Below, one piece after another: positions 3,117 through 63,357 of a stretch of 64,000 nt of DNA. The notes under the pieces were generated by a model. The model saw nothing but the letters and a program-made list of their open reading frames with translations. It did no database searches and was not told where the DNA came from. Positions within the stretch are counted from its first letter, which is position 1; the number at the start of each line of letters is the position of its first letter. A program made the translations under genes and the position numbers. Where the stretch lies: positions 15,006 through 79,005 of the forward strand of contig JBBING010000003.1 in assembly GCA_037444005.1 (NCBI GenBank). Direction: 5' to 3'. The stretch comes from Chloroflexota bacterium. GTDB taxonomy: Bacteria; Chloroflexota; Dehalococcoidia; DSTF01; JACRBR01.

Positions 3117-3225
3117 CGCCTCCTCCCCCGCTGAACTATCGGCTCCCGCGACTGCGATGTTCAGATGTTCAGGAGTATGCCACAAACGGGGACGCTCGTC
3201 GCCTCGTCCCGTGAACGAATCGCCC

Positions 3226-8752: not shown

Positions 8753-8765
8753 CAGGGAGGTGTGC

Positions 8766-9590: not shown

Positions 9591-10415
9591 ATGACCGCGA
9601 CGGTGCCCCCCGAGACGACCCCCGCGACGCGCGTGTTCGTCGCCCACGGCGCGCAGGTCTTCGCGCGTCTCTGGGACGGCGCCGAGCCAACCGTGCTGAT
9701 CCTCCACGGGTGGGGTAGCAAGGGCGAACGCTGGCTTCGCGTTGCCCAGGGGCTCGCCGAGGCAGGCTGGGCCGTCTGTCTCCCTGACCTGCCCGGCTTC
9801 GGCGAGAGCCCGCCACCGCCCGCGCCGTGGGCTGTGGAGGACTACGCGCACGCCGTCGACGAGATGACGCGCGAGCTCGGAGCCCCAACGACCTTCGTGG
9901 TCGCGCATTCGTTCGGCTCGAGGATCGCCATTCGCCTCGCTGCGACCGGACGGGCGGGCATCCGCGCTATGCTGCTCACCGGCGCGGCAGGGCTCCGGCC
10001 GCGGATCACGTGGCGACGGCGGCTACTGAGCCGGGCCGCGCGGGCCGGCGCCGCCGTCTTCGCGCTGCCCCCTCTGCGGCCAGCCGCCGACCTCGCGCGG
10101 CGGGCGCTGTATCGCGCGATCGGCTCCATGGACTACTACCTGGCCCGCGGGGTGATGCGGGACACGTTCCGGCTCGTGGTCGAAGAGGACCTGGCGAACG
10201 ACATGCGGGCGGTCAATGTGCCGGTGAAGCTGCTCTGGGGCGCCGACGACCGCGCGACGCCCCTCAGCGACGGCCGCCGTATGGCCGGCCTCATCCCCGG
10301 AGCGGAGCTCGAGGTCGTGGAGGGTGTGGGCCACGCCCTGCCCCACGAGCGCCCCGAGCTTCTCGTGTCTCGTGCGCGGGCGTTCTTCGAGACGGCGCGG
10401 GGAGCGGCCCGATGA
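9591..10415 (+). CDS. Alpha/beta hydrolase fold protein
   Basis: HGWGS oxyanion region, nucleophile elbow AHSFGS, and a C-terminal GVGHALPHE His motif. The stop overlaps the next start (ATGA). Confidence 0.85.
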   Translation: MTATVPPETTPATRVFVAHGAQVFARLWDGAEPTVLILHGWGSKGERWLRVAQGLAEAGWAVCLPDLPGFGESPPPPAPWAVEDYAHAVDEMTRELGAPTTFVVAHSFGSRIAIRLAATGRAGIRAMLLTGAAGLRPRITWRRRLLSRAARAGAAVFALPPLRPAADLARRALYRAIGSMDYYLARGVMRDTFRLVVEEDLANDMRAVNVPVKLLWGADDRATPLSDGRRMAGLIPGAELEVVEGVGHALPHERPELLVSRARAFFETARGAAR

Positions 10416-12049
10416 TTGCGCTCGCTCTCGCGGCGGCCGCGCTCGCCGCTCTGCGAACGGTGCGCGCGGCGCTGCTGTACATCAGCCTGTGGCAGGTTCG
10501 CGAGTACCGATGGGATCGCTTCCGCGCGTTCCTCGGCACGCGGGCGGCCCGGACGTTGGCGCTTCATCCGTTCCCGCTCGCGCGACTCGCGCTTCTCGCG
10601 GCGCTCGTCGCCATCGCTCGCTGGACGCAACCGGGGGAGGCGGCGCTGGGCGCGATCGTGGCGCTCTACGCGCTCGAGGTGGGGCTCGGCGCGAGGGAAG
10701 CAGTGGCACGGACGATCCGGCGTCCCGCGCGGACCTTCAGGGCGCTCGCCCTGACGGCGGCGGTCGTCTTCGCGGGTTGGGCCGCCATCGCGGCCGCGGT
10801 CGTGGTGGCGATGACCGCCGATCTCGATGACCACGTTCGCTGGTTTACCCTCGCCCTGGCGTTGCTCGCCATCGACCGCCTGCTGCCGTTTGCGGCGGGC
10901 GCGCTCGTGCTGGCTGCGCGGCTGCCCAATCAGGCGCTGGTGGCCCTGGATGTGCAGCGGGCGCGACGCGCGATGCGCGGCAGCCACGCGGTCGTCGTCG
11001 GCATCACCGGGAGCTACGGGAAGACGAGCACGAAGACGTTTCTCGCCACCATCCTCTCGCAGCGCCGCCGGGTCTGGGCGACCCCGGGCAGCGTCAATAC
11101 GCTCGTCGGCGTGGCCCGCCTCATCGCCCGGTCGGGCGCCGACTACGACGTCATGATCGTGGAGATGGGCGCCTATCGTGAGGGCGAAATCCGGGCCATC
11201 TGCGAGCTCGTGCGGCCTAGAATTGGCGTGCTCACCGCGGTCGCGGAGCAGCACCTTGCGCTCTTCGGGAGCATCGAGCGGACGCTCGAAGCGAAGTTCG
11301 AGCTCATCGAGGCGCTGCCGCGAGACGGGCTCGCGGTGCTGAACGGCAACGACGCGCGCATCAGGGCGCGGAGCGAGGGCGTGGCCGTACCCCGCCGGTT
11401 CTATTCTGCGACCGGCCCCTCGGACGTGTGGGCGAAGGATGTGACGGTCGGCCGGGATGCCCTCGAATTCACGGTCGTGTATGGTCAGGAAGAGGCGCGA
11501 TTCCGCTGCGGGGTGCTGGGCAGGCAGAACGTCGAGCCGCTGCTCGCCGCCACGGCGGTCGCGCTCGAGCTCGGCATGACGCTTGCGGAGGTTCGCGACG
11601 CCGCGTCGGCGGTGAAGCCGGTCCGCCGCACGCTGGAGCCAGGCCAGCTTCCCGGCGGCGCGACGTGTATCGACGACACGTTCAGCGCGAGCCGCGCGGC
11701 GATCCTGGCGGCGCTGGACTTCCTGGCGGAGGCGCCCGCGGAGCGCCGATTTATCGTCATCTCGGGGATCCCCGAGCTCGCCGAGCTGACCCGGCCCGTT
11801 CACGAGGAGATCGGCGTCAGGATGAGCCAGGTTTGCGACCGCATGATCTGCGTCAACGGCGACTACGCTCCCTTCTACGAGCGCGCGATGGACGAAGCGG
11901 CCCGAAACGGACGGTTCTTCTTCGAGCCGGACCCGGCGAAGGCGGCCGCGCTTCTCGCCGACCTCCGCGCGGGGGACATCGTGCTGTTCGAGGGACGGGG
12001 AGCCGAACGGGTGCTGGACCGGCTGCGCGTGCGCGCGGAGGCGACGTGA
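10412..12049 (+). CDS. Mur ligase family protein (MurF-like) with N-terminal multi-TM domain
   Basis: About 190 N-terminal hydrophobic residues (some 5-6 TM) followed by the Mur ligase P-loop VVGITGSYGKTSTK and central/C-terminal Mur ligase domains (NGNDARI, ISGIPELAEL). Confidence 0.85.
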   Translation: MIALALAAAALAALRTVRAALLYISLWQVREYRWDRFRAFLGTRAARTLALHPFPLARLALLAALVAIARWTQPGEAALGAIVALYALEVGLGAREAVARTIRRPARTFRALALTAAVVFAGWAAIAAAVVVAMTADLDDHVRWFTLALALLAIDRLLPFAAGALVLAARLPNQALVALDVQRARRAMRGSHAVVVGITGSYGKTSTKTFLATILSQRRRVWATPGSVNTLVGVARLIARSGADYDVMIVEMGAYREGEIRAICELVRPRIGVLTAVAEQHLALFGSIERTLEAKFELIEALPRDGLAVLNGNDARIRARSEGVAVPRRFYSATGPSDVWAKDVTVGRDALEFTVVYGQEEARFRCGVLGRQNVEPLLAATAVALELGMTLAEVRDAASAVKPVRRTLEPGQLPGGATCIDDTFSASRAAILAALDFLAEAPAERRFIVISGIPELAELTRPVHEEIGVRMSQVCDRMICVNGDYAPFYERAMDEAARNGRFFFEPDPAKAAALLADLRAGDIVLFEGRGAERVLDRLRVRAEAT

Positions 12050-13296
12050 CCCGCCCCATCGCTATCTCGATCTCTCCGAACACCGACGCCTCCGATGTGC
12101 GGGCCGCAGCGCGCGAGCTCGCGCGGCCGTGGACGTGGACGGACGAACGGGATGTGCGGGCGTTGGAGGCGCGGTTCGCGGCGCGGTTCGGGGGACGGGC
12201 GTTCGCGTTCGAGAGCGCCCGGTCGGGGCTGTACACGCTCCTGGCGGCGATGGGCCTGTCGTCCGAGGATGAAACGCTGCTGCAGGCTTTCACCTGTGTG
12301 GCCGTGCCGAACGCGGTGCTGTGGGCCGGCGGACGCCCTGTCTACGTGGACATGGACCCGCGGACGTACAACATCGACCCCGCGGACCTCGAACGAAAGC
12401 TGACGCCCCGCAGCCGGGCCGTGATCGTGCAGCACACGTTCGGCATTCCGTGCGACCTGGACGCGGTGATGGAGATCACCGGTCGCCGGCGACTGCTCCT
12501 CATCGAGGACTGCGCGCACGCGCTCGGGGGCTCGCACGACGGGCGCGAGCTGGGCACATTCGGAGACGCGGCGGTGTTCAGCTTTGGCCGGGACAAGGTC
12601 ATCTCGTCGGTGTTCGGCGGCATGCTGGTGGTTAGGGAGCCCGACATCGCGGCGAGGGTCGCGGCGCTATACGAGAGCATCCCGTTGCCCTCGCGGCGAT
12701 GGACCGCCCAGCAACTGCTGCATCCCGTTGCGACCAACATCGCCGTACTGCCGCTGTACTTCCGGGCGAGGATCGGCGTCGTGCTGCTGGTAGGCTTCCA
12801 GCGTGCGGGGCTGTTGTCCCGGGCCGTCGCCCCGGAGGAGTTGCGCGGGGGCCGGCCTCGTGGCTGGGTTCGACGCCTTCCGGTGCCGCTGGCGCGCCTC
12901 GCGGCCAGACAGCTCGACCGGCTCGAGGCTCTCAATGCGCATCGGCGAGCCATGGCCGACGTCTACCGCGCCGAGCTGGACGGGATGGTGCTTCCCGCGC
13001 TTCACGACCCGGGCGACGTGCCCGTGTACCTCCGCTTCCCTGTCGCGACGTGGGAGCGGGACGCCATCATCGCGCGGGCGCGCCAGAAGCGCATCCTTCT
13101 GGACAAATGGTACGACGCGCCGGTAGCGCCCGCGGGCGTCGACCTCGCGGCCGTGCGGTATGTTCCGGGGTCGTGTCCCAACGTCGAGGCCGCGTGCGCG
13201 ACCACCCTCAATCTGCCCACGCACCCGCGGATCGACGCCGGCGACGCCCGCGCCATCGCGCGTCTCGTCCGCGAACGGGTCGAGGTGGCGGCATGA
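12046..13296 (+). CDS. DegT/DnrJ/EryC1/StrS family PLP-dependent aminotransferase
   Basis: GTG overlapping the upstream TGA. PLP-lysine context SFGRDKVISSVFGG and the IEDCAHALG motif. Confidence 0.85.
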   Translation: MTRPIAISISPNTDASDVRAAARELARPWTWTDERDVRALEARFAARFGGRAFAFESARSGLYTLLAAMGLSSEDETLLQAFTCVAVPNAVLWAGGRPVYVDMDPRTYNIDPADLERKLTPRSRAVIVQHTFGIPCDLDAVMEITGRRRLLLIEDCAHALGGSHDGRELGTFGDAAVFSFGRDKVISSVFGGMLVVREPDIAARVAALYESIPLPSRRWTAQQLLHPVATNIAVLPLYFRARIGVVLLVGFQRAGLLSRAVAPEELRGGRPRGWVRRLPVPLARLAARQLDRLEALNAHRRAMADVYRAELDGMVLPALHDPGDVPVYLRFPVATWERDAIIARARQKRILLDKWYDAPVAPAGVDLAAVRYVPGSCPNVEAACATTLNLPTHPRIDAGDARAIARLVRERVEVAA

Positions 13297-14306
13297 TCGA
13301 CGTGCGGACGGTCGACGACCGGGAACGCTGGGACGCTTTTGTGACGGCGCAGCCCGGCCACACCTTCCTGCAATCGTCCAACTGGGGTGAGCTGAACGCC
13401 TCCCTGGGGCATCCGGCGCACTTTCTCGGGCTGTGGGAGGGGGGCGACCTCATCGGCGCCGCGCTCACGTTGGAGATGCGGTCGCGCCGGGGACGCTTTC
13501 TCTTTGTGCCGCACGGCCCTCTCATGCCGTGGTCCGAGCGCACGTTCGGCGCGCTCCTCGAGGCGCTGCGAGCGCTGGCGAGAGAGCGGCGGTGCGCATG
13601 GATTCGCATCAGTCCGGTGATCTCGCGCGACTCGGCGTTCGGGGCGCTGTTCCGGCAGCACGGCTTCCGTGGCGCGCCCATTCACGTGCACGCCGAGAGC
13701 ACATGGACGCTGGACGTGCGGCGCTCGGACGAGGAGCTGCTCGCTGGCATGCGGCAGACGATGCGGAACTCGATTCGCCGGGCGATCAAGGACGGGGTCG
13801 AAGTGCTGCGAGGGTGCGACCCGGGCCTGCGGGCGGCGTTCTCGAAGCTGTACTACGACACTGTCGAGCGGCAGCAGTTCACCCCGTACTCCGCGGCGTT
13901 TCTCGAGCGTGAGGTCGACTGCTTCGCCCGGGACAACCGTATCCAGGTCTACGTCGCGATGTACCAGGGGGAGGCGCTGGCGGGGGCGATCGTGGTCTTC
14001 TACGGGAATTCGGGCTTCTACCATCACGGGGCCACGGCGAACATCCATCGCAAAGTGCCCGCCTCGTACCTGGTGCAGTGGGAGGCCATCCGCGAGGCGC
14101 GGGAGCGCGGGTGCGCGTACTACAACTTCTGGGGCATCGCGCCGGACGACCGGCCCGACCACCCGTGGGTCGGGCTCACGCGGTTCAAGCAGGGATTCGG
14201 GGGCTTTCGGACGGACTACCTCCACGCGCAGGACCTTCCGCTCAGCCCCGCGTACTGGCTGAACTGGGTGGTGGAGACGGCGCGGCGCATCCGGCGGCGG
14301 TACTGA
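13293..14306 (+). CDS. FemAB-family peptidoglycan interpeptide-bridge peptidyltransferase (GNAT fold)
   Basis: The ATG overlaps the upstream TGA. Sequence reads as FemX/FemAB family (FLQSSNWGEL..., ...YHHGATANIHRKVPASYLVQWEAIREARERGCAYYNFWGI). Confidence 0.85.
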   Translation: MIDVRTVDDRERWDAFVTAQPGHTFLQSSNWGELNASLGHPAHFLGLWEGGDLIGAALTLEMRSRRGRFLFVPHGPLMPWSERTFGALLEALRALARERRCAWIRISPVISRDSAFGALFRQHGFRGAPIHVHAESTWTLDVRRSDEELLAGMRQTMRNSIRRAIKDGVEVLRGCDPGLRAAFSKLYYDTVERQQFTPYSAAFLEREVDCFARDNRIQVYVAMYQGEALAGAIVVFYGNSGFYHHGATANIHRKVPASYLVQWEAIREARERGCAYYNFWGIAPDDRPDHPWVGLTRFKQGFGGFRTDYLHAQDLPLSPAYWLNWVVETARRIRRRY

Positions 14307-25762: not shown

Positions 25763-27054
25763 CCGCGCGCGGCCCGTTCCGCTGGGGAGCGGCGCTCGTC
25801 GCGGCGGTCCTCGCGCTCGGCGCGATCGCCGGGCTTTCGCGCAGCGTCGGCGCGCAGACGCTGCACGTCGACAGCGTCGAGGCGACGAACGCGTTTCCCG
25901 CGGGCGCGGTGTTCTCCATCTTCGCCCGGATCCCTGAGCCTCCGAAAGAGGTGCGCCTGCGGTACAGCATCGCCCCCGACGGCACCGAGGCGATGCGCGT
26001 GGCGGAGTGCTCGGGGATGAACCCCATCGGCTGTCGCGCCACCGTGGGCGACACGTTGGACACGTTTATGATCCCGGGCGCCGAAGTGACGTTCTCATGG
26101 GAGTTCACGCTTCCTGACGGCACGCGGCTCACTACCGACCCGCAGCGCTTCGTCTACGAGGACACGCGGTTCGAGTGGAACACGGAGTCGGCCGGCAACG
26201 TCACGGTCTACTACTACGGCTCCAATCGCGACCTGGCGCGCCGCGCGCTGGCGGCTGCGGAGGAAACGCTGGACCGTCTCGGAGGCATGCTCGGCGTCCG
26301 CGTGGCCTTCCCTGTCAAGGTCTTTCTGTACGAAGACGCCTCTACGATGAGGCCCGCCATTCTGTCCAACCCGCGCGCGGGCGTGGTGACGCTGGGCGAG
26401 GTCTACTTCTCGGATACGGCGATGGTGGCGGCAGACGTCGCGCCCGAGGACGTGACCCGGCACGAAGTCGCGCACATCGTGATCCGCGAGGCCACGCGCG
26501 GGCCATTTGGTGTGCCCGCCTGGCTCAACGAGGGCACGGCGGTCTGGGCGCAGGAGGAACCGCTGGGCGGCGAACTGGATGCGCTCGACGCCGCCATCGC
26601 GCGGGACCGCGTGCTCCCGCTTCAGGTGTTGAGCTCTTCGAGCGCGGCGGGCAATCCCGACACCGTGAGTCTGTTCTACGGGCAGTCGTACTCCGTCGTG
26701 AACTATCTCATCACGACGTACGGCGAGGAGAAGTTCCGTCAGCTCTTCGCGGTGTTCAAGGAAGGCGCCACCACAGACAAGGCCCTGCGCACCGTCTATG
26801 GGCTGGGCGTGCGGGAGCTCGAGAACGCCTGGCGGGCGTCCCTGGGCCTGCCGCCGAGGGCGATTCCTTCGCCTACCGTGGAAGCGACTCCTGCCGGCAC
26901 GCGGACGCCTGTCGGCGCGACCTCGGGCCAACAGCCTGCGGGCGACGACGGTGGGTTCCCTGTGGCGGTCGTGGTGGCGATCGCCGCCGGCGCGCTCGCG
27001 TTGGCGGGCGCCATCGTGGGGCTGGGCGTCATCGCTGCGAGGAAGGCGAGCTAG
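25759..27054 (+). CDS. Secreted zinc metallopeptidase (gluzincin-like HEXXH...NEG), C-terminal TM anchor
   Basis: GTG overlapping the prfB stop. Signal peptide, then HEVAHIV plus a downstream WLNEGTA motif, and a C-terminal hydrophobic helix VAVVVAIAAGALALAGAIVGLGVIAA. Confidence 0.7.
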   Translation: MTARGPFRWGAALVAAVLALGAIAGLSRSVGAQTLHVDSVEATNAFPAGAVFSIFARIPEPPKEVRLRYSIAPDGTEAMRVAECSGMNPIGCRATVGDTLDTFMIPGAEVTFSWEFTLPDGTRLTTDPQRFVYEDTRFEWNTESAGNVTVYYYGSNRDLARRALAAAEETLDRLGGMLGVRVAFPVKVFLYEDASTMRPAILSNPRAGVVTLGEVYFSDTAMVAADVAPEDVTRHEVAHIVIREATRGPFGVPAWLNEGTAVWAQEEPLGGELDALDAAIARDRVLPLQVLSSSSAAGNPDTVSLFYGQSYSVVNYLITTYGEEKFRQLFAVFKEGATTDKALRTVYGLGVRELENAWRASLGLPPRAIPSPTVEATPAGTRTPVGATSGQQPAGDDGGFPVAVVVAIAAGALALAGAIVGLGVIAARKAS

Positions 27055-28574
27055 CGGTCGGTGCGGGCCGCGCCCGCGCTCTCCGATGGGCTCTCGCGGC
27101 TCGTGGGCAGCTCCTCGGCGCCGTAGTACCCCGGGCGATATTTGAAGACGTTCACCGTGCTGCGGGCCACGTCGGGGACGTAGAAGAACCGGTAGCCCTG
27201 CCCCTTGAGGCGCAAGAAGGTCTCGTACTCGAGAAGCCAGACGTAGAGGATGTCCCGCTTGTGGTCGATGGTCACGCCTCGATCCGAGAGCATGCTGATG
27301 GCGCGGTAGTCCTTCTCGAGAATGGCGTTCTCGAACCGGTCGTGGTTCAGCACCGCGAAGTGGGGGTACGTGAAGCCCATCATCACGACTGAGTGCTCGG
27401 GGATCGGGATGTCGTCGCGGACCTCGTTCGCGAACTCGATCTGGTTGTCCATGGTTTCCAGGGACGACAAGAGCATCCCTTTTCCGACGCGGGCGTTGGT
27501 GAAGGCCTCGAGGTTGATTTCGTCGCCCGGAGACGTGAGGTCGACGAACCCCGCGAGCAGGATCACGGCGAGGGTCGAGACGAGAAGCCATCGTGGGAAG
27601 TAGCGCGCCATCAAGAAGAAGCCGAAGGGGAAGAGGGGGATGAGGTACGCGATCTCGTGCGGCAGCCGCGTGAAGGAAGCGAAATACAGCACGATGACGC
27701 TGAGCCACATCCACAGATGCGGCTCGCGCCGCAGGTCCGACGGCAGGCGCGCGAACTTCGGCAGAGCGATCCCCAGGGCCACCAGCGTCCATATGGCGCC
27801 GACGAGTCCCAGGCCGTCCTTCCCCAGCAGCCTCAGGAAGTTCAGCCACGGCACCTTCTGGTCGTAGAAGTTCCAGAAGTCGAGCTTGTAGACCCACAGC
27901 ACGGGAGCGAACGCCACGGCCGTGACGACCGTGGCCGCGGCGGCGAGAGGGGCGGCGTCGCGGGTTCGGCCGGAGCGCCACAGGTACAACGCGAGGGGCA
28001 GCGCCATCCCGAGGTACGTCAGGCGGAAGCCCGCGGCGACCCCCACCAGGGCGCCGGCCAACAACGGGCGCCTCCTCAGGGCCGCGAGGTACGCCGCGAG
28101 CCCGAATGTCAGCGCCCACATGTAGTCCATCGTGGTGACGCTGTTGATCCAGAGCAGCGGCGCGAAGGCGAAGGCCACGGTCAGCGCTCCCTGCGCGGGC
28201 AGACGGAGCTCTCGCACGAGCTGCGCGAAGACCCAGACCCCCGCCAGCGACGCGAGAACCGTCGAGAGGTTCGTGGCGGGCGCGCCGCCCTTGATGAACG
28301 CGGCGGTCACGAATTCGTGCAGGGGATACCCGGGCAGCCGCGAGGGCCAGTATTCGCCGTGGTCCCACAGGTAGTTCGCCGTGAGCGCGACACGCCAGGC
28401 GTCGGGGTCGGTGCCGTACCCGTGCCAGAGCCACGGCACGCGCGAGAGGACAAAAGCGACCGCGAGCGCCGCAAAGGCGAGGGGCCGTGTAAAGTCGAAC
28501 TCGAGGGCTCGTTCGAGGAGCCCCGAGACGGCGAGCGCGGGACTGCGTTCGACGGAAGGCGCCTCCGCGGTCAT
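27051..28574 (-). CDS. GT-C superfamily membrane glycosyltransferase (PMT/ArnT/PimE-like)
   Basis: 507-aa polytopic membrane protein with an N-terminal periplasmic loop carrying Asp motifs (GTDPDAWR) and many TM helices. It is the last gene of the PI/PIM-like operon. Confidence 0.65.
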   Translation of the reverse strand: MTAEAPSVERSPALAVSGLLERALEFDFTRPLAFAALAVAFVLSRVPWLWHGYGTDPDAWRVALTANYLWDHGEYWPSRLPGYPLHEFVTAAFIKGGAPATNLSTVLASLAGVWVFAQLVRELRLPAQGALTVAFAFAPLLWINSVTTMDYMWALTFGLAAYLAALRRRPLLAGALVGVAAGFRLTYLGMALPLALYLWRSGRTRDAAPLAAAATVVTAVAFAPVLWVYKLDFWNFYDQKVPWLNFLRLLGKDGLGLVGAIWTLVALGIALPKFARLPSDLRREPHLWMWLSVIVLYFASFTRLPHEIAYLIPLFPFGFFLMARYFPRWLLVSTLAVILLAGFVDLTSPGDEINLEAFTNARVGKGMLLSSLETMDNQIEFANEVRDDIPIPEHSVVMMGFTYPHFAVLNHDRFENAILEKDYRAISMLSDRGVTIDHKRDILYVWLLEYETFLRLKGQGYRFFYVPDVARSTVNVFKYRPGYYGAEELPTSRESPSESAGAARTDR

Positions 28575-28578
28575 CGGT

Positions 28579-29385
28579 TCATCGTCCCGGCAGGATGAGG
28601 CCGCTCTGCGTCCTGCGAAACGAGGGGGCTTCTTCCGAAGACGGGCGGGGCGGCGGCCCGACCGGCGTCGCCGGGCCGACGTGACGCCGCGACGTCGTGG
28701 CGAGGGGCGACGGCTCCTCCGCAGACGCTTCGACGAGCGCGTCCGCCAGGTCCTCTTCGAACTCGACCTCGCCGACCAGCGCGATCCTTCCGTCCATGAT
28801 GGTGGTCGGGACCTCGCGCACTTCGTGACGCTCCATGAGGTCGGGGAACTCGGTGACCTCGACGACGGACGCATGCACTCGCGGGCTGGCGAGCGCGAGC
28901 CGCGCCGCGATGAGCGCCATCGCGGCGGAATGCGGGCACGGGGGCGCCACCAGGACAGTAAGGTCGACGTCGCGGCGCATCTTTTTGAGGATTCGCGCCG
29001 TCTCTCTCGAGACCATGGGCTCGCCATGGGACGCCGCGATGATCGCGTCGACGAAGGCCGGGAACAGGTCGGCCGCGGGGATGCCGAAGAATCGCAGCGG
29101 ACGGTTCAAGATGCCCCGGACGACGATGCCGGGAATGCGGTCGACGCCGAGCCGCGCCGCGGCGGCGCGCTCTTCGGAGAACTCATGCACGGTGAGGACG
29201 ATGCGCTCGGACAGGCTCGCCAACTCGCGGAGCATCTTCCGCACGTCTTCGCAGAAGGCGCACTCCTCGCGACCGGGCAGGACCAGCTTCGAGGGCCGCT
29301 GGGTGAAGAAATCGATGCGAACTCTGCCGCCGAGCTCTCTCTCGAAGAGCGATCGAATCGCTTCCTGCTCGCGCAGCGGGATCAC
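28579..29385 (-). CDS. PDO/glutaredoxin-like thioredoxin-fold protein (two Trx units: CAFC and CPHS)
   Basis: Two thioredoxin-fold repeats with CAFC and CPHS active-site motifs. The ATG overlaps the upstream stop (ATGA). Confidence 0.75.
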   Translation of the reverse strand: MIPLREQEAIRSLFERELGGRVRIDFFTQRPSKLVLPGREECAFCEDVRKMLRELASLSERIVLTVHEFSEERAAAARLGVDRIPGIVVRGILNRPLRFFGIPAADLFPAFVDAIIAASHGEPMVSRETARILKKMRRDVDLTVLVAPPCPHSAAMALIAARLALASPRVHASVVEVTEFPDLMERHEVREVPTTIMDGRIALVGEVEFEEDLADALVEASAEEPSPLATTSRRHVGPATPVGPPPRPSSEEAPSFRRTQSGLILPGR

Positions 29386-46781: not shown

Positions 46782-47390
46782 GTGAGAGCCGGCGTACTCG
46801 CCCTGCAAGGCGACTTCGAGGAACACGTGTCGATGCTCCGGCGCCTCGGCGTGGAGGCCGTCGAGGTGCGATTGCCGCAGCATCTCGAAGGGCTCGACGG
46901 CATCATTCTTCCCGGGGGCGAGAGCACGACCATCGTTCGCCTTATCGACGAGTACGGCCTGCGTGAGCCGCTGCGCAAGTTCGCGGAAGCGGGCGGCGCC
47001 CTCTGGGGCACCTGCGCCGGCATGATCGTGCTCGGGCGCCGCGTGCCTGACCTCGACCGGCCGCCACTGGGATTGATGGACCTGACGGTTCGCCGCAACG
47101 CGTTCGGCAGGCAGATCGATAGCTTCGAGGCGTGGGTCGAGGTGCGCGGGATGGACGGCGGGCCGTTCCCGGCCGTCTTCATCCGCGCGCCGCGCATCGA
47201 GGAGGTGGGACCCGAGGTCGACGTGCTGGCGACGCTAGACGACGGCACGATGGTCGCGGCGCGCCAGGGGAGCATGCTCGCGACCGCGTTTCATCCGGAG
47301 CTGACGGACGATACGAGATTCCACCGCCTGTTTCTCGAGCTCGCGAGCGGCGCCCGGGGCGGGGCTCGCCTCGCGGCGGGGACGAGTTGA
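46782..47390 (+). CDS. pdxT: Pyridoxal 5'-phosphate synthase glutaminase subunit PdxT
   Basis: GTG start 6 nt after a TACAAT (leaderless-like). VRAGVLALQGDFEEH..., catalytic GTCAGMI, C-terminal FHPEL. Confidence 0.9.
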   Translation: MRAGVLALQGDFEEHVSMLRRLGVEAVEVRLPQHLEGLDGIILPGGESTTIVRLIDEYGLREPLRKFAEAGGALWGTCAGMIVLGRRVPDLDRPPLGLMDLTVRRNAFGRQIDSFEAWVEVRGMDGGPFPAVFIRAPRIEEVGPEVDVLATLDDGTMVAARQGSMLATAFHPELTDDTRFHRLFLELASGARGGARLAAGTS

Positions 47391-47434
47391 GCGCCGGCGC
47401 CAGATCGACCCGACAGGAGGTCGAACCGAGGGGA

Positions 47435-48376
47435 ATGCCTAGCGCGCGCGCGCCGCTGCCCACGGACCTCGTGGCGCTGGTCCTACACGACGGCCGGCGT
47501 TGTCCCAACGAAGCCGTCACCTGGGATCGCATCGGAAAGGGGGACGCCCCAGGGCCGCTGGAGACGGCGGTCGAGCAGTGGCTGTCGTTCGCCACGGGCC
47601 GGCACACGTGGATCAGCGTGAAAGGGCGCACGCTCCGAGGGCTGGCCTCGGCGCGCGTCCGCGGGTCGCGGCAGGCCTGGGAGATCGACTGCCTGATCGA
47701 CGCGGCCGAAGACGACGAGGGCGTGCTCATCAACCTGCTCGACCGAGTGGTCGCCGACGCTGGACGCTCCCGGGCCGAGAAGGTCTTCGTCCGACTGGAT
47801 GCGGCGAGCGCCGCGCTGGACACGGCGCTGCGCTGCGGCTTCTCGATCGTCTCGACCGAGGGGCTGTACTACCGCCCGAACCCTGCGCCGGTGGACCCGG
47901 CCCACGCCGACCCCGGGTGGCGGCGCCGCCTCAAGACCGACGCCTACGCTCTGTACCGGCTGTACAACGCCGCAGTGCCGGAGTCGGTGCGCCGTGTCGA
48001 AGCGGCGACGCTGCCCGAGTGGGTGGCGGCGCAGGAGCGGCTGTCGGCGCCCCGGCGCACGCACCAGTTCGTGGTCGAGCGCGACGGCCGCGTGCTGGCG
48101 TGGGCGCGAACGGCGGTGGACGGCGACGTCGGACGCTTCCAGGTGGTGGCCGCGCCCGGCGAGCCCGAACTTTTGGACCGGGTGTTGCACGCCGCCATTC
48201 TGCGCCTGGCTCAAGCGTCTGCCCTCTACACGCTCGCGCCGCTCTACGACGGGGCGCTGATCCGGCGCCTGGAGGACCTGGGATTCGGACGGATCACCGA
48301 GTTCGCGGTGCTGGCGCGGAGGACCGCCGAGACGGTGAAGGCCCCGCGGTTCGCGCCGGCAAACCTTGTGGGATAA
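47435..48376 (+). CDS. Hypothetical protein, tandem GNAT-like fold (acetyltransferase-like)
   Basis: 313 aa. Two repeats resembling GNAT C-terminal halves ([13 protein letters not shown]; [19 protein letters not shown]). No firm family assignment. Confidence 0.5.
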
Positions 48377-49987: not shown

Positions 49988-51139
49988 TCAGTGCGCGGCC
50001 TCCGACCGCAAGGGGCGCCGTACGGCCCGCTCCCAGACATCCCACGCAGGCTTCGGCGAGCCGTCTTCCCGGCGGAGACCCACGTAGCGAAACGTGTCTA
50101 ACGGTGGGTCGGTCGCGTACGGAAGGTCCCACGCGGCCAGCCAGACGACGAACCGCATCTTCAGAGCCTCGGCCTCGAGCAGGATACGGACGAGGAACTC
50201 CTCCTGCAGGGGCTCCGTGCCCAGATTCAGCCCCCGTCGTCCGGGACCGGAGGAATATCCCATCTCCGCGATGGCGAGGGGCAGGCCCGTCCGACGCTGC
50301 GCGCGTGTGTAGTAGTCGGCGGGGATCGCCTTCACGCGCTGATAGGCCAGACTCGGAAACGTGGAGATGGCGAACAGGTCGAGCCGACCGCCGAAGCGCG
50401 CGACCAGGTCCCAGTCGGGCGGGTGCTCCTCCACTGTCGGCAACACGCCGTTGAGGTCTTCGTACTGGAAGGTCACGAAGACTGCGGTCTCCGGCGAGGT
50501 CTCCTTTACGGCGTCGTAGATCCTGCGGTACACCTCCACGAACGCTTCGAAGTCGTCCGGGTGGATGCGGGCGTACAGGTTGATGTCGGTGGCCACGGCC
50601 AGGTACCGGGGGCGATAGTTCTTGACGACGTATTCAGCGTAGGTGAACAGCGCGTGCTGGATGTCGGGGTGGGCGAATCCCGCCCCTCGCAGTCGCTCGG
50701 GCAGCCCGGCCAGCCGGCCCCGGTCGAGAGGGTCGGTCGGGTCGATGGCGAAGAAGAGGCCGAGGCCTCGTTCTCGGATGAGCGACCGCTCGCGCTCCGT
50801 GATGGAGGCCGTTTCGTCGGAGATGCGGCCGCCAGGCAAGACCTCTTCCCACGGGGGCGTGCGCTTGACGAGCACGATCTCGCCCGCCTGGGCGGCGAGA
50901 TCCATGACGCGGATGTATCCGTCGTCCGTGAGCTCCAGGGGCAGCGAGCTGATCCCCATTTCGAAGGGGCGCGGAGGGCCCTCCGCGACGCGTGTCGGGG
51001 TGGAAGCCGGGGAGGGGGCGACGTCGCGGCACGCGGCGAGGGAGAGGGATGCGAGGGTCGCGATGACGAACGCGAAAGCCTTCGGAAAACCCGTCCACGC
51101 GGCGCGCCCGGTCGTACAGGGGATGCGCGCGACCATCAT
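49988..51139 (-). CDS. Putative glycoside hydrolase lipoprotein (clan GH-A-like TIM barrel)
   Basis: Signal peptide plus lipobox (LASLSLAAC) and an IAEMGY nucleophile-like motif. Confidence 0.5.
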   Translation of the reverse strand: MMVARIPCTTGRAAWTGFPKAFAFVIATLASLSLAACRDVAPSPASTPTRVAEGPPRPFEMGISSLPLELTDDGYIRVMDLAAQAGEIVLVKRTPPWEEVLPGGRISDETASITERERSLIRERGLGLFFAIDPTDPLDRGRLAGLPERLRGAGFAHPDIQHALFTYAEYVVKNYRPRYLAVATDINLYARIHPDDFEAFVEVYRRIYDAVKETSPETAVFVTFQYEDLNGVLPTVEEHPPDWDLVARFGGRLDLFAISTFPSLAYQRVKAIPADYYTRAQRRTGLPLAIAEMGYSSGPGRRGLNLGTEPLQEEFLVRILLEAEALKMRFVVWLAAWDLPYATDPPLDTFRYVGLRREDGSPKPAWDVWERAVRRPLRSEAAH

Positions 51140-51621
51140 CGTGCCGATGCGGGAAGCGTGCGCGGCGCCGGGGTCACGCCGTCCCGGTGGGTGGTGTCGG
51201 GCACGGTGCGCTCGAAGCGAATCCGTGGCGCGCGCTCGCGATAGGCGTCGCAGCCGGCCTGGTCGAGGCGGGCGATCTCCTCGACGCACCGCCGCAGGTC
51301 CGCGACGAGCCGCGCCACGTCGACGCCGAGGTACGCGGGAGCGAACGGCTCCAGCTTCGCGATGGCGAGCGGCAGGAGCTTGAGGGCGCCTGCAGGTTCG
51401 CGGCGGGCGAGATGAACGAACGCCGCCGCCGCCTGAATGACGCCCTGGAAGAACTGCCTCACGGGCCAAGGGGAGACGAACCACAGGTCTTCCAGCGTCT
51501 CGTGCGCCTCGAACCAGAACCCCAAGTTGAACTCATCGAGCGCCTTCCAAAGTTCGGGGAGGCGCTCGATCACCTCGGCGTCGGTGAGCAGGACGGCGTT
51601 ACGTCGGCGCGCGGTGGCCAT
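51136..51621 (-). CDS. DUF309-like protein (AHExLExLW motif)
   Basis: FWFEAHETLEDLW motif. The ATG at 51621 has a GGGGAG RBS; an upstream ATG at 51675 lacks one. Confidence 0.6.
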   Translation of the reverse strand: MATARRRNAVLLTDAEVIERLPELWKALDEFNLGFWFEAHETLEDLWFVSPWPVRQFFQGVIQAAAAFVHLARREPAGALKLLPLAIAKLEPFAPAYLGVDVARLVADLRRCVEEIARLDQAGCDAYRERAPRIRFERTVPDTTHRDGVTPAPRTLPASAR

Positions 51622-59014: not shown

Positions 59015-60079
59015 ATGAAGCGCGACATTCTCATCGCCGGCGTGTTGTGGCTTGCGCTGACCGTCGTCGGTCTCTTCTTTGTCGGGCGCATTGACTACTT
59101 CCCGTCGACGATGTCCGACAAGGGCGAAGAGGTCGAGCACGCGTTCCGGGTCCTGGCGCTCCTCGCCGTCCCCGTGGCCGCTCTGGTCGTCACGGTCCTG
59201 TTCTACAGCGTCATCGTCCATCGCTCGAAGGGCGACCCCGTCGAAGACGGCCCGCCCATCATGGGACGAGGCGCGTTCCCTATGGCCTGGTTCGGGATCA
59301 CCTCCGGACTGACGCTGCTGGTGATGATCTATCCGGGCCTGACGAGCCTCGCGAAGATGATCGACAACCCGACACCAGACCTCGTCGTGAACGTCGAGGG
59401 CGTCCAGTGGACGTGGCTCGTCAGCTATCCGCAGCAAGACGTGCGGAACGTCCGCGAACTCGTTCTGCCGGTCGACCGAACGGTGCGGTTCGACATCACG
59501 AGCCGGGACGTACTCCACTCGTTCTGGGTCCCCGCGTTCCTGATGAAGATCGACGCGGTCCCGGGAAGGACGACGACGGTAACCTTCAAGCCCACCGAGA
59601 CGGGCTCGTATCAAGAAGACTCGTCCCTCAGGCTGCAGTGCGCTGAACTCTGCGGCCTCAGTCACTCCCGGATGATGCTGCCCGTGCGGGTGGTGACGGA
59701 GGAGGAGTTCCAGGCGTGGGTCGAGAAGAATCGCCGGCCGCCGGCCACGCCCGCGCCCACAGCCGGGCCTGGTGCAGAGGTGGAAGAAGTCACCATCGTG
59801 GCGAAGAACGTGCTCTTCGACCTGAAGGAGATTCGGGTGAAGGCCGGCTCGCAGGTGAAGCTCACGGTCGACAACCAGGACGCCGGCGTTCCCCACAACT
59901 GGTCGCTGTACGAGAGCGAGGACGCGGCGAAAGCCGGCGAGACGCCGCTCGCCGCCACCGAGGTCGAGACGGGCCCGGTGACGCAGGAGCTGACCTTCCC
60001 CGCTCCGGACCCGGGCGTCTACTTCTTCCGCTGCGATGTGCACCCGACCACGATGGTCGGTACCTTCATCGTCGAATGA
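59015..60079 (+). CDS. ctaC: Cytochrome c oxidase subunit II with fused C-terminal cupredoxin (blue-copper) domain
   Basis: Two N-terminal TM helices. CuA ligands HSFWVP ... CAELCGLSHSRM. An extra approximately 100-aa C-terminal domain carries type-1 copper ligands (VPHNW ... FRCDVHPTTM). Confidence 0.9.
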   Translation: MKRDILIAGVLWLALTVVGLFFVGRIDYFPSTMSDKGEEVEHAFRVLALLAVPVAALVVTVLFYSVIVHRSKGDPVEDGPPIMGRGAFPMAWFGITSGLTLLVMIYPGLTSLAKMIDNPTPDLVVNVEGVQWTWLVSYPQQDVRNVRELVLPVDRTVRFDITSRDVLHSFWVPAFLMKIDAVPGRTTTVTFKPTETGSYQEDSSLRLQCAELCGLSHSRMMLPVRVVTEEEFQAWVEKNRRPPATPAPTAGPGAEVEEVTIVAKNVLFDLKEIRVKAGSQVKLTVDNQDAGVPHNWSLYESEDAAKAGETPLAATEVETGPVTQELTFPAPDPGVYFFRCDVHPTTMVGTFIVE

Positions 60080-60107
60080 GAGCGCGGGAGCTCGAGGAGC
60101 GAGTGCG

Positions 60108-61991
60108 ATGACCGGAGCGGTTGTGCAGCCCAACGAAGAGCGGCCGAGCCTCGCGAGCGCGTTCGTTCCCATGCTGCGCGGGCTGCTGTGGGGCGCCGTC
60201 GGGTTCGCGGTGGGTGCGGGCCTGACCGCGCTGGCGCGCGTGGCGTCAGGGGAGAGCGCCTGGTGGCTCGAACTGAACTTCACGGTCGGTTACGCCTTCG
60301 GGCTCGTGGGCTGGCTCCTCGGGGTCGGCATGTGGGAGCGGTGGGGCCGCGAGTGGTTCGGACTTCAGACCCGGCGCGATCTCACCGACTGGCGGAGGTT
60401 TTTCGCCTTCACCACCGACCACAAGGTCATCGGAGTGCAATACCTGGTGACCTTCCTGCTCCTGTTTCTGGCGGCGGGTCTGCTCGCCATGCTCATCCGG
60501 ATGCAGCTCCTGCAGCCGGACGGCGCGGTGATGAGCGACGGCACGTACAACCGCGTGATGAGCCTGCACGGGATCATCATGATCGCCGTGGCCGTCGCGG
60601 CTGTGATCGGCGGGTTCGGGAACTACTTTGTGCCCCTGCTCATCGGCGCCCGCGACATGGCGTTTCCGCGGCTCAACGCCCTCAGCTTCTGGCTCGTGCC
60701 GCCCGTGGCGGTCCTCCTGCTCGCCGCGCAGGCCGCGGGAGGATGGGACTCCGGCTGGACCGCGTACCCGCCCCTCAGTGTCCGGAACGCGGCCGGGCAG
60801 GTCTTCTTCAACCTCGCGATCATCACGTTCGGACTGTCCTCCATCCTCGGCGGCCTCAACTTCATCGTGACCGTCTTCCACATGCGGGCGAAGGGCATGA
60901 CCTGGGGACGGCTGCCCATCTTCGTCTGGTCCATGTTCGCCGCAGCATGGCTCGCGCTGACGTTCACGCAGTTCTTCGCGGCGGCGATGCTGATGATCAC
61001 GCTGGACCGCCTGGCGGGCACGTCGTTCTTCGTGGCGGACCAGGGTGGGAAGCCGCTGCTGTACCAGCACATCTTCTGGTTCTACTCGCACCCGGCGGTG
61101 TACATCTTCGTCCTGCCCGGGTTCGGCATCACCCTCGAAGTCCTGGCGCACTTCTCGCGCAAGCCGCTGTTCGCGTACAAGTGGGCGGTCGGTGGCTTTC
61201 TCGGCATCGTCGCGGTGAGCGGCATCGTCTGGGCCCACCACATGTTCGTGAGCGGTATGGACAACAAGCTGCTCGCGCCGTTTCTCGTAACGACCGAGAT
61301 CATCTCGATCCCGACGGGCCTGGTCTTCCTGTCGGCGCTGGGCACCATCTGGCAGGGGCGCCTGTGGCTGAAGACGCCGATGCTGTTTGCCCTGGGGATG
61401 GTGTTCAACTTCCTAATCGGCGGCGTCACGGGCATCTTCCTGGCGGACGTGCCGACGGACATCAACCTGTCGGACACGTACTTCGTGGTGGCGCACTTCC
61501 ACTACACCATCATCGGCGGCGAGATCTTCGCGTTGTTCGCCGGGCTCTACTACTGGTTCCCGAAGATGACGGGACGGATGTACAACGAGCGGCTCGGCCA
61601 GCTCCACTTCTGGCTGATGATCATCGCGTTCAACCTGACGTTCCTCCCGATGTTCTGGGCCGGCCTGCACGGCATGAACCGGCGCATCGCCACGTACCCG
61701 GAGGACCTGCAGGCGCTGAACGTGTTCATCAGCGTCATGGGCTTCCTGCTGGCGAGCAGCTTCCTGTTCTTCGTGGCGAACATAGTGTGGTCGCTGGTCA
61801 AGGGGCCGAAGGCTGCGGCCGACCCCTGGCGCGCCCGGACGCTCGAGTGGCGGGTGTCGTCGCCGCCGCCCATCGAGAACTTCCCGGCGCCGCCCGTGGT
61901 CAGCGGCCATCCCTATGACTACGGCGTGCGGGGAGCGCCGGCTCACGCCCTGCTCGGCGTCGCCGGCGCGAGTGGAGAGGCGAAGGTATGA
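60108..61991 (+). CDS. ctaD: Cytochrome c oxidase subunit I (haem-copper oxidase, A-type)
   Basis: GAGGAG RBS. Conserved His ligands in WFYSHPAVYIFVLPGFG, GIVWAHHMF and VVAHFHY. About 12 or more TM helices, with an approximately 60-aa N-terminal extension. Confidence 0.96.
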   Translation: MTGAVVQPNEERPSLASAFVPMLRGLLWGAVGFAVGAGLTALARVASGESAWWLELNFTVGYAFGLVGWLLGVGMWERWGREWFGLQTRRDLTDWRRFFAFTTDHKVIGVQYLVTFLLLFLAAGLLAMLIRMQLLQPDGAVMSDGTYNRVMSLHGIIMIAVAVAAVIGGFGNYFVPLLIGARDMAFPRLNALSFWLVPPVAVLLLAAQAAGGWDSGWTAYPPLSVRNAAGQVFFNLAIITFGLSSILGGLNFIVTVFHMRAKGMTWGRLPIFVWSMFAAAWLALTFTQFFAAAMLMITLDRLAGTSFFVADQGGKPLLYQHIFWFYSHPAVYIFVLPGFGITLEVLAHFSRKPLFAYKWAVGGFLGIVAVSGIVWAHHMFVSGMDNKLLAPFLVTTEIISIPTGLVFLSALGTIWQGRLWLKTPMLFALGMVFNFLIGGVTGIFLADVPTDINLSDTYFVVAHFHYTIIGGEIFALFAGLYYWFPKMTGRMYNERLGQLHFWLMIIAFNLTFLPMFWAGLHGMNRRIATYPEDLQALNVFISVMGFLLASSFLFFVANIVWSLVKGPKAAADPWRARTLEWRVSSPPPIENFPAPPVVSGHPYDYGVRGAPAHALLGVAGASGEAKV

Positions 61992-62230
61992 CGGGAAACG
62001 GTCACAGCGGAGACGGCCACGGGCCGGGAGAGGGCGTGTCGGCCGCGGTTCGAACCGGATGGATGGTCTTTGTGGCCCTCGCGGCGCTGACCATCGTCGA
62101 GTACATCGTCGCGGTGAGCGTTGACGCGAACCTCCCGGTCATCGCGATCATCGCCGTCGCGAAGGCCGCGTTCATCGTCTACTACTTCATGCATGTCGTG
62201 CGCGCCTGGCGCAGAGAGGCAGGGCACTGA
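61988..62230 (+). CDS. ctaF: Cytochrome c oxidase subunit IV (small CtaF-like subunit)
   Basis: 80 aa, two TM helices. The ATG overlaps the ctaD stop (ATGA). Confidence 0.7.
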   Translation: MTGNGHSGDGHGPGEGVSAAVRTGWMVFVALAALTIVEYIVAVSVDANLPVIAIIAVAKAAFIVYYFMHVVRAWRREAGH

Positions 62231-62814
62231 TGGCGATCGCGAGCACGTACGCCGAGGCCCGCGCGGCCGTCGAACATCACGAAGAGCACCGCCCGGCGAT
62301 GAATCAGCTCGGGCTGTGGCTGTTCTTCGTCTCGGAGTCCTTTCTGTTCGCGGCGCTGCTGGCCGCGCGGTTCTACCTGGCGGGCACGGACAAGCCGGAG
62401 CACCTGAACCAGTTCCTCGGGCTCATCATTACGTCGGTGCTCCTGTTGAGCAGCTTCACGGCCTACCGGGCGGAGACAGCCATCGCTCATGGCGACCGCT
62501 CGGCGTTCCTGCGCAATCTGCTGGCGACTATCATCATGGGCGCCGTGTTCGTCGTGGGCGTCGGGTTCGAGTGGAGCACCGCCGAATTCTCCCGCCACGA
62601 GCCGTACGGCACGGCGTTCTTCTCCATGACCGGGCTGCATGCGTCCCACGTCATCAGCGGCGTCGCGATGCTCGCGCTCGTCTTCGTTCTCGGGCTGCGC
62701 GGGCACTTCTCTCCGGAGGGCTACTGGGGCGTCGAGGCGACCATCAAGTACTGGCACTTCGTCGACGTCGTGTGGGTCTTCTTCTACCCCGCCCTGTATC
62801 TGATGGGGTGGTGA
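62230..62814 (+). CDS. ctaE: Cytochrome c oxidase subunit III
   Basis: FFVSESFLFAALLAARFYL, TGLHASHVISG and YWHFVDVVWVFFY signatures. Confidence 0.93.
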   Translation: MAIASTYAEARAAVEHHEEHRPAMNQLGLWLFFVSESFLFAALLAARFYLAGTDKPEHLNQFLGLIITSVLLLSSFTAYRAETAIAHGDRSAFLRNLLATIIMGAVFVVGVGFEWSTAEFSRHEPYGTAFFSMTGLHASHVISGVAMLALVFVLGLRGHFSPEGYWGVEATIKYWHFVDVVWVFFYPALYLMGW

Positions 62815-62817
62815 CGG

Positions 62818-63357
62818 GTGATCGCCGGGGCGACCCGGACCGACGCCGAAGCGACTGAGCGCCGAAGCAGCGCCCTGCCATGGGGGACCATCGCATGGTG
62901 GGCGCTCTCGCTTTTCGCCGGCCTTGCGCTGGCCGGAGGCGTCAGCGTGGCGTCGTGGTTCGCGCTGTCGGACGGGCCGACGCGCGCGCCGAAACCCGTC
63001 GAGATCGCCATCCCCGCAGGCACGTACGATCGCATCCGGTCGGGCGCGGCGCTATCGCCCATGCCGAGCACGCTCGAGTTCGTGCAAGGCGACACGCTCA
63101 TCGTGCGGAACGAGGACCGGGTCCAACACCAGATCGGCTCGTTTTCCATTCCGCCCGGTGGCGTCACCAGTATCCCGCTGACGCAGGCGAGCTCGCAGTC
63201 GTTTCTGTGCAGCTTTCACCCGGCGGGCGTGATCGGCCTGAACGTGAAGGCGCGGTCCAATCCGTGGGGCATCCTGTGGCCGACGTTCTTGCTCGGGGTC
63301 CCGTTCGGGATGGCGATCGGCGGCGTAGGCGCGATCCTGCGCAGGATCGAGTGGTGA
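62818..63357 (+). CDS. Hypothetical membrane protein downstream of cox operon (periplasmic beta-rich domain with His/Cys)
   Basis: GTG 4 nt after the ctaE stop. N- and C-terminal TM helices flank an approximately 110-aa domain containing HQIGSF...FLCSFHPAG. Confidence 0.5.
   Translation: MIAGATRTDAEATERRSSALPWGTIAWWALSLFAGLALAGGVSVASWFALSDGPTRAPKPVEIAIPAGTYDRIRSGAALSPMPSTLEFVQGDTLIVRNEDRVQHQIGSFSIPPGGVTSIPLTQASSQSFLCSFHPAGVIGLNVKARSNPWGILWPTFLLGVPFGMAIGGVGAILRRIEW

Follow-up and report, generated by a model that had tools for sequence, protein, structure and literature searches.

A 64,000-nucleotide stretch of DNA from a Dehalococcoidia bacterium (Chloroflexota), referred to here as the window, contains a cytochrome c oxidase operon whose CuA-bearing subunit II ends in an additional, auracyanin-like type-1 copper (T1) domain. 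Fusion of an electron carrier to an oxidase is known for cytochrome c, in the enzymes of the caa3 type, while auracyanin, sulfocyanin and halocyanin are examples of blue copper proteins that act as donors either free or on an anchor of their own. Here both ideas are joined in bacteria, with a T1 domain in the slot of the caa3 cytochrome and the same module on the complex III cytochrome c of the closest relatives. With a probability of roughly 65%, we read the operon as an A2-type haem-copper oxygen reductase of aerobic Dehalococcoidia, in which the tethered T1 domain would replace the cytochrome c of caa3 oxidases and would be supplied with electrons by a Rieske/cytochrome b complex.

A CuA subunit II with an additional domain

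The gene coxII (ctaC; 59015..60079, + strand) encodes a protein of 354 amino acids comprising a CuA subunit II and a type-1 copper cupredoxin, as seen from the list of open reading frames (ORFs), Pfam and TIGR02866. Its ORF begins with ATG, with a GGAGA Shine-Dalgarno sequence 5 nt before the start, and the codon statistics are gene-like (GC content at third codon positions, GC3, of 0.88; window GC about 68%). An identical protein is present on the NCBI contig CAZOUD010000001.1 of a metagenome-assembled genome (MAG; GCA_964582925.1), and among relatives that bear a name, the nearest come from Dehalococcoidia MAGs. Pfam COX2 (PF00116) matches amino acids 148-225 (E 3.8e-18; 66 bits against a gathering score of 22), and the protein passes the NCBIfam equivalog TIGR02866 (CoxB), scoring 163.5 bits where 147.7 are required. 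This last match starts at amino acid 39, within an N-terminal membrane region (amino acids 1-105; 59015..59329, +) where a Kyte-Doolittle scan predicts hydrophobic helices at 5-23, 46-64 and 87-105.

The membrane region is followed by the CuA cupredoxin domain (amino acids ~120-238; 59372..59728, +), defined by ligand conservation and by its match in the PDB. The CuA ligands, whose codon positions were checked, are H168 (59516), C209 (59639), E211, C213 (59651), H217 (59663) and M220 (59672), matching the pattern H...C-x-E-x-C-x3-H-x2-M. Across 121 aligned full-length homologues, with identities down to 50%, H168, C209, C213, H217 and M220 are invariant, position 211 is either E or Q, and Trp132 (59408-59410), the electron-entry tryptophan, is nearly invariant. 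Since the mean column identity of this alignment is only 52%, the invariance of the ligands points to a pattern under selection and not to chance. The best PDB match is 2yev_B, subunit II of the Thermus thermophilus caa3 oxidase (E 1.9e-41); there is, however, no CxxCH motif anywhere in the window CoxII. The two copper domains are joined by a stretch rich in Pro, Ala and Thr (amino acids 239-257; 59729..59785, +), delimited by the per-column composition and the gaps of the alignment; this stretch varies in length and is a flexible linker.

The fused type-1 copper domain

The last 97 amino acids of CoxII (258-354; 59786..60076, +) form the auracyanin-like T1 domain, as indicated by AlphaFold2, Foldseek, phmmer and ligand conservation. 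Two Pfam families match this region, namely Cupredoxin_1 (PF13473; amino acids 254-353, E 1.4e-14, 54.5 bits against a gathering score of 27) and Copper-bind (PF00127; amino acids 262-354, E 6.8e-9, 36.5 bits against a gathering score of 21.2). The T1 ligands, with their codons checked, are H294 (59894) in the motif VPHNW, and C340 (60032), H343 (60041) and M347 (60053) in the motif FRCDVHPTTM. All four are invariant in 121/121 homologues, and the asparagine following the first histidine (Asn295) is found in 118/121. The presence of a single cysteine in this domain indicates a T1 site, not a second CuA.

The AlphaFold2 model of amino acids 256-354, built from an alignment of 31 sequences, is an all-beta sandwich of eight strands, in keeping with the Greek-key fold of cupredoxins, with a mean predicted local distance difference test score (pLDDT) of 98.5. 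When compared with the PDB by Foldseek, the model gave 429 matches with E<=1e-3, the listed ones all being copper proteins or domains with the cupredoxin fold. Three auracyanins rank at the top, with TM scores of 0.84-0.85 and 25-26% identity, followed by amicyanin, the CuA domain of nitrous oxide reductase, rusticyanin, AcoP (7z3f), plastocyanin and azurin. The same relationship is found at the level of sequence, where phmmer matches auracyanin A (2aan) with E 1.5e-6, or 8.4e-14 with the family profile, and where the Roseiflexus auracyanin (6kol) and auracyanin B (1qhq/1ov8) are further relatives. The ligand loop has the form C-x2-H-x3-M in the window and C-x2-H-x2-M in some relatives. On the basis of model and sequence, the C-terminal domain is predicted with high confidence to be a cupredoxin, auracyanin-like yet not an auracyanin.

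The initial annotation of this DNA, made from the sequence alone, had described a subunit II with all CuA ligands at 59015-60079, and an extra C-terminal blue copper domain with a His-Cys-His-Met ligand set; both descriptions are borne out by the data above. A non-copper fold, one of the outcomes considered at that time, is excluded by the structure prediction, and the conservation of the ligands in orthologues, also raised there, turned out to be complete.

A cupredoxin in the place of cytochrome c

The position of the T1 domain becomes clearer when the architecture of related CoxII proteins is compared. After a search of 1.84 billion cluster representatives at 50% identity, the best 150 were inspected, and among these 29 carry a CuA site plus a T1 motif (one of them with two T1 domains), 20 carry CuA plus a CxxCH motif about 50 residues past the CuA motif, which is the caa3 architecture, and 70 carry CuA only. 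Since the T1 motif and CxxCH alternate at one C-terminal position, the cupredoxin can be said to occupy the slot of the caa3 cytochrome c. This had already been proposed for the window, and the existence of related CoxII proteins with CxxCH at this place, together with 2yev as the nearest solved structure, confirms it. Among clusters at 90% identity, the best 120 CoxII matches all carry the CuA-T1 fusion, which is thus widespread and common in metagenomes.

Neither the CoxII::T1 fusion nor the cupredoxin-tailed cytochrome c described below is flagged in public annotations. A full-text literature search, which left most subscription journals uncovered and is therefore a weak negative, found analogues only and no description of a bacterial CoxII fused to a type-1 cupredoxin; within the same weak coverage, no cupredoxin-tailed cytochrome c of a Rieske/cytochrome b operon was found either. 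We regard the fusion as real, conserved and widespread, and as an apparently undescribed variation on a design principle that is already known.

The catalytic subunit and the rest of the operon

The gene for subunit I follows at a distance of 29 nt from coxII. Its ORF spans 60036-61991, and the true start is most likely the ATG at 60108, as in the public record, giving coxI (ctaD; 60108..61991, +), an A2-type subunit of 627 amino acids (Pfam COX1, E 5e-144, 480.7 bits). The A2 motif YSHPAVY, in which Tyr-Ser takes the place of the helix VI glutamate, lies at 61083-61103 (FWFYSHPAVY, amino acids 323-332) and is shared by 120/120 relatives. The nearest solved structure is again the T. thermophilus caa3 oxidase (2yev_A, E 2.4e-133), and the identity to bona fide A-type oxidases is ~45-50% over 500 amino acids. 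The six histidine metal ligands, the HPAVY motif of the His-Tyr cross-link and the D-channel residues D104, N148 and the Asn of GFGNY are all kept, and for this reason CoxI is still read as an oxygen reductase.

Nevertheless, this subunit departs from the textbook form in several ways. The lysine of the K-channel, normally found in PTG[VI]K, is replaced by valine in TTEIISIPTGLVF (amino acids 395-407; 61290-61328), as placed by gapless HMMER alignments to 2yev_A and 7jro_a, and an invariant glutamate of helix VIII lies nine residues before this position. The combination of valine and glutamate is found in 10/10 loci of the Chloroflexota clade with fused CoxII, and the 116/116 database homologues of CoxI with >=66% identity have V, I, L or M at the K-channel position and the glutamate. 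The lysine is retained in an Ilumatobacteraceae enzyme and in oxidases with unfused CoxII. Loss or variation of the K-channel is known for archaeal A-family enzymes (PMC8239418). In addition, canonical helix I is preceded by an N-terminal extension of about 100 amino acids (1-101; 60108-60410) with two extra predicted transmembrane helices and conserved Gly and Trp residues, which is present clade-wide, the homologues being 600-670 amino acids long. The NCBIfam model TIGR02891 (CtaD_CoxA) is narrowly missed, with 635.4 bits against a cut-off of 670.75.

Two further subunits complete the enzyme: coxIV (ctaF-like; 61988..62230, +), of 80 amino acids, which matches Pfam COX4_pro above the cut-off (E 1.4e-10) and holds the same position in all related loci, and coxIII (ctaE; 62230..62814, +), a short form of 194 amino acids (Pfam COX3, E 4.6e-27), also conserved across related loci. 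The order ctaC-ctaD-ctaF-ctaE, with subunit IV before subunit III, agrees with the one given in the initial annotation.

The relatives of these proteins carry a diversity of public names, such as 'cytochrome c oxidase subunit II', 'cupredoxin domain-containing protein' or even 'cbb3-type oxidase subunit I'. For CoxI relatives such as P0283, P0330, P0362, P0382 and P0396 the public name looks misannotated, since it is at odds with YSHPAVY, with a subunit II of the CuA type and with the presence of subunits III and IV.

Gene context of the relatives and the likely donor

To place the domain in its genomic context, the motif Y[FY][FY][RV]CD[VA]HP was scanned in 185,579 species-representative genomes, which gave 570 relatives; the 80 best loci were retained and sorted according to the ORF with the motif and the genes around it. 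Among these 80, the gene order coxII::cupredoxin-coxI-coxIV-coxIII is seen again in nine loci of Chloroflexota/Dehalococcoidia (L001, L004-L007, L009-L011 and L013) and in one locus of the Ilumatobacteraceae (Actinomycetota; L044). In others (L012, L048, L050-L052, L055, L064, L066 and L073), a cupredoxin of the same family, often membrane-anchored, is encoded by a separate gene in or beside a cox operon with an unfused CoxII. This alternation between separate and fused genes is the Rosetta-stone pattern, and points to the cupredoxin as the dedicated partner of the oxidase.

The same family is also found in a second respiratory context. Five loci (L002, L003, L060, L070 and L079; Pfam and tblastn) contain an operon for the N-terminal part of cytochrome b, a C-terminal cytochrome b/subunit IV-like protein, a Rieske protein and a cytochrome c fused to the cupredoxin, and the operon is also present on the independent assemblies L083-L085 (precomputed Pfam calls); in L023, the Rieske/cytochrome b operon is followed by a separate cupredoxin gene. 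The fusion protein, encoded by the last gene of the operon, is a membrane-anchored monohaem cytochrome c (CxxCH and a GTAMP region with the Met ligand) with the cupredoxin at its end. Examples are L002:2830-3756, L003:1847-2764, L070:5014-6294 and L083:6001-6927, publicly named 'cupredoxin domain-containing protein', and in longer forms of 426-455 amino acids (L060, L070 and L079) a large insert separates the haem-binding and Met-ligand regions. L002 shares its MAG with L001, a locus with cox proteins that have 92-98% identity to those of the window, and L003 shares its MAG with L004. The T1 domain of the window CoxII is 82% identical to the cytochrome c-fused domain of L002 and 76% identical to that of L003, values that are as close as or closer than those for the CoxII-fused orthologues (67% in L004 and 55-61% in L005-L011). 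In sister MAGs, a domain 76-82% identical is thus carried by the cytochrome c encoded together with Rieske and cytochrome b proteins, which makes the Rieske/cytochrome b complex the likely donor, and not Alternative Complex III (ACIII).

Two other members of the family deserve mention. One is a lipoprotein cupredoxin paralogue (L008), 62% identical to the T1 domain of the window. The other is the C-terminal domain of a NirK-like copper nitrite reductase of 476 amino acids from an uncultured Actinomycetes MAG (L065:4852-6282), a fusion indicating that this domain serves as a redox relay module.

As a separate observation, cupredoxins of the same family, with 45-53% identity, are common in methanogens (Methanoregulaceae, Methanotrichaceae, Methanoculleus and Methanospirillum; loci L015, L017, L018, L024, L027-L030, L035, L043, L045, L049, L062, L063, L068, L069 and others), where they occur as small anchored proteins or within large proteins of several domains, in which as many as five T1 motifs follow one another in tandem, an unexpected finding in strict anaerobes.

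Proposed mechanism

In the path that we propose, the T1 domain, which stands behind the CuA domain after a linker of about 19 residues, would lie on the outer face of the membrane. By analogy with caa3 oxidases, it would take up single electrons and pass them to CuA, probably via Trp132, and from there to haem a and the haem a3-CuB centre. The initial annotation had already suggested a copper-protein entry point for electrons, and such a role is deduced here from architecture and gene context. The donor is most likely a Rieske/cytochrome b complex (b6c-like, with a split cytochrome b) acting through its cupredoxin-tailed cytochrome c, the donor genes being those of the sister MAGs, and the ~60%-identical lipoprotein cupredoxin may serve as an extra shuttle. 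Tethered copper sites, and not a soluble cytochrome c, would thus connect complex III with complex IV, the electrons moving from haem c to T1Cu, to the second T1Cu and to CuA.

Tethered carriers would fit a cell that has no outer compartment to retain soluble ones. The window also encodes a sortase (2340-3185, -), a Mur-ligase-domain protein (9827-12049, +) and a FemAB-family protein (12699-14306, +), all recognized by Pfam, and this set suggests that the peptidoglycan is of the Gram-positive type, has interpeptide bridges and carries proteins anchored by sortase. A wall of this type would not retain soluble carriers, which would favour tethered ones.

A more specific version of this scheme, in which the T1 domains of complexes III and IV would undergo pseudo-self-exchange, possibly within a supercomplex and without a soluble carrier, and in which the oxidase clade would also use a different proton-uptake route, is put forward only tentatively, and we hold it to be rather unlikely as a whole. 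Its last part follows from the hydrophobic residue in place of the K-channel lysine, the glutamate of helix VIII and the two extra helices of CoxI.

Several points weigh against the reading as a tethered-copper oxidase fed by a Rieske/cytochrome b complex. The operon with the cupredoxin-tailed cytochrome c is known from sister MAGs and metagenome contigs only and is not in the 64-kb window, where tblastn with cytochrome b, Rieske and cytochrome c queries gave no match. The members of the 90%-identity cluster of the L002 protein map to GCA_900174565.1, GCA_900175155.1 and GCA_034432175.1, and none to GCA_964582925.1. Besides, the contig of L002 is short (4.1 kb), and MAG binning could mis-assign such a sequence. 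Regarding the domain itself, we infer its copper binding, redox potential and electron transfer from sequence and model, and, as its ligand loop is shorter than that of auracyanins, the redox properties of the latter are not simply transferable. Finally, between near-identical T1 sites there would be almost no driving force for electron transfer.

Alternative explanations

The closest alternative keeps the function of the T1 domain and changes its donor, which would be ACIII, acting directly or via a free auracyanin, the arrangement of Chloroflexus and Roseiflexus. This was the partnership implied by the initial annotation, and it draws on the fact that the nearest solved relatives of the domain are auracyanins, on the role of ACIII as menaquinol:auracyanin oxidoreductase in filamentous anoxygenic phototrophs (PMC10873879), and on the scope of the gene scan, which is confined to the portion of the genome present in the window. 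Within that portion, however, Pfam found no genes for ACIII, Rieske, cytochrome b, cytochrome c biogenesis, ctaA/ctaB or Sco among the 40 proteins scanned outside the operon, and for ACIII in particular there is no molybdopterin-type ActB, NrfD-type ActC/F or multihaem ActA; the relatives, in turn, have the almost identical domain attached to the cytochrome c of a different quinol oxidase. We therefore consider ACIII an improbable donor, and this part of the earlier proposal is not upheld. A donor from outside the quinol chain, such as Fe(II) in a lithotrophic pathway resembling those of rusticyanin and sulfocyanin, is more improbable still. Cupredoxins in or beside the cox operons of Acidithiobacillus (cup/AcoP before coxB, and rusticyanin) do serve iron oxidation (bioRxiv 10.1101/2020.03.01.968255), and for Ferroplasma it has been proposed that sulfocyanin accepts electrons from Fe(II) (PMC10654088), but the neighbours of the operon are sugar and housekeeping enzymes, with no Cyc2-type or other iron-oxidation gene near it, and the Rieske/cytochrome b link in the relatives indicates a normal chain from complex III to complex IV.

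Other explanations question the role of the domain or of the whole enzyme. In other systems, CuA and CuB are metallated by PCuAC or Sco, and the extra domain could be a built-in copper chaperone or store performing this task instead of carrying electrons. Such a role would fit the lack of a Sco or PCuAC gene in the operon and among the scanned window proteins, as well as the cupredoxin-like fold of PCuAC, which acts on subunit II (PMC9145763). Yet the domain has the canonical T1 set His-Cys-His-Met plus His-Asn and not the PCuAC motif H(M)x10Mx21HxM, its best fold matches are electron-transfer cupredoxins, and it recurs on a complex III cytochrome c and on NirK, where a T1 site is expected to relay electrons, so that we give this explanation very little credit. 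It is equally hard to believe that the enzyme is not an oxygen reductase but a divergent haem-copper member, for example a nitric oxide reductase with a cupredoxin subunit II. The missing K-channel lysine, the invariant glutamate of helix VIII and the TIGR02891 score of 635 bits, under the cut-off, could be taken in that sense, and a cupredoxin-containing subunit II is typical of alternative nitric oxide reductases (PMC8756737). Against it stand the intact metal ligands, HPAVY, D-channel residues and A2 YS motif of CoxI, its similarity over 500 amino acids to bona fide A-type oxidases (E 2e-133), and the presence of subunits III and IV.

Comparison with known systems

As a tethered-copper oxidase, the enzyme of the window is closest in design to the caa3 (A2) oxidases of Thermus thermophilus (2yev), Rhodothermus marinus and Bacillus, which are likewise A-family enzymes with YSHPxV and a carrier fused C-terminally to the CuA subunit II. 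In contrast to these, its carrier is a T1 cupredoxin with no haem c or CxxCH, subunits I and III are separate genes in the order II-I-IV-III, and CoxI lacks the K-channel lysine and is extended by two helices at its N-terminus.

Auracyanins A and B from Chloroflexus aurantiacus and the auracyanin from Roseiflexus castenholzii (2aan, 1qhq/1ov8 and 6kol) come from the same phylum and share the fold of the T1 domain. They are membrane-tethered T1 copper carriers of menaquinone-based chains (PMC10873879). Whereas auracyanins are free-standing proteins working with ACIII and the reaction centre, the domain of the window is a covalent part of CoxII, and the quinol oxidase to which it is tied in the relatives is a Rieske/cytochrome b complex instead of ACIII. 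The ligand loops also differ, C-x2-H-x3-M in the window versus C-x4-H-x3-M in auracyanin A (C-T-V-P-G-H-Y-P-L-M), so that the domain of the window lacks the azurin-like long loop.

Blue copper proteins are also associated with oxidases in archaea. In the SoxM supercomplex of Sulfolobus acidocaldarius, the membrane-bound sulfocyanin (SoxE) replaces cytochrome c between a Rieske/cytochrome b module and a CuA oxidase (PMC3062577). This system is archaeal, and sulfocyanin is a separate polypeptide from another cupredoxin family, whereas the type found in the window is fused, apparently on both partner complexes. In the haloarchaeal ba3 (B-type) oxidases, the redox partner halocyanin is a blue copper protein fused to subunit IIa (PMC3128077); in that case, the copper domain is N-terminal in a single-helix subunit of an archaeal B-type enzyme, as opposed to C-terminal to CuA in a bacterial A2-type enzyme. 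A further parallel is AcoP ('cup')/rusticyanin in the rus operon of Acidithiobacillus ferrooxidans, where the cupredoxin gene adjoins coxB of an aa3 operon, and AcoP is among the fold matches of the T1 domain. Nevertheless, AcoP is a protein of its own, its copper site is green, and it belongs to the iron-oxidation pathway of an acidophilic proteobacterium.

If the proposed mechanism is true, it would explain how quinol oxidation is linked to oxygen reduction in abundant uncultured aerobic Dehalococcoidia, in other Chloroflexota and in some Actinomycetota, and it would tie the aerobic respiration of these soil and sediment bacteria closer to the copper supply. It would also provide a natural system for intramolecular electron transfer from T1Cu to CuA. 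Both the CuA-T1 fusion and the cupredoxin-tailed cytochrome c are hidden by current annotation.

Other features of the window

The last gene of the operon, orf179 (62818..63357, +), encodes a membrane protein with two transmembrane helices, defined by their prediction and by nine homologues. The protein with His and Cys residues formerly noted after the oxidase genes is therefore present, with its helices placed around a beta-rich extracytoplasmic domain of about 100 amino acids, in which H104, C131 and H134 (VQHQIG...FLCSFHPAG) are invariant. It has no family match in Pfam or NCBIfam, its AlphaFold2 model is of moderate to low confidence (pLDDT 62), and Foldseek gave nothing better than E 0.29 against the PDB. 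With hhalign, the probability of a match to the cupredoxin profile is 7.5%, the C-x2-H-P loop aligning weakly to the T1 loop with Val for the axial Met. The gene stands directly after coxIII only in the sub-clade formed by the window, L001, L004, L011 and L013. Its product could be an assembly factor or a copper protein that resembles cupredoxins but lacks the Met ligand. A possible identity as 'pre-SURF' (Degli Esposti preprint, bioRxiv 10.1101/2020.03.01.968255) was considered and rejected, as the second transmembrane helix contains no conserved His.

Elsewhere in the window there are several long ORFs with coding-like GC3 for which Pfam gave nothing at E<=1e-5 or 1e-3, located at 27051-29027 (-), 47132-48376 (+), 49988-51484 (-) and 7448-8752 (+) / 7676-9262 (-). 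In the region of this last pair, at 7.4-9.3 kb, overlapping ORFs on both strands compete as coding.

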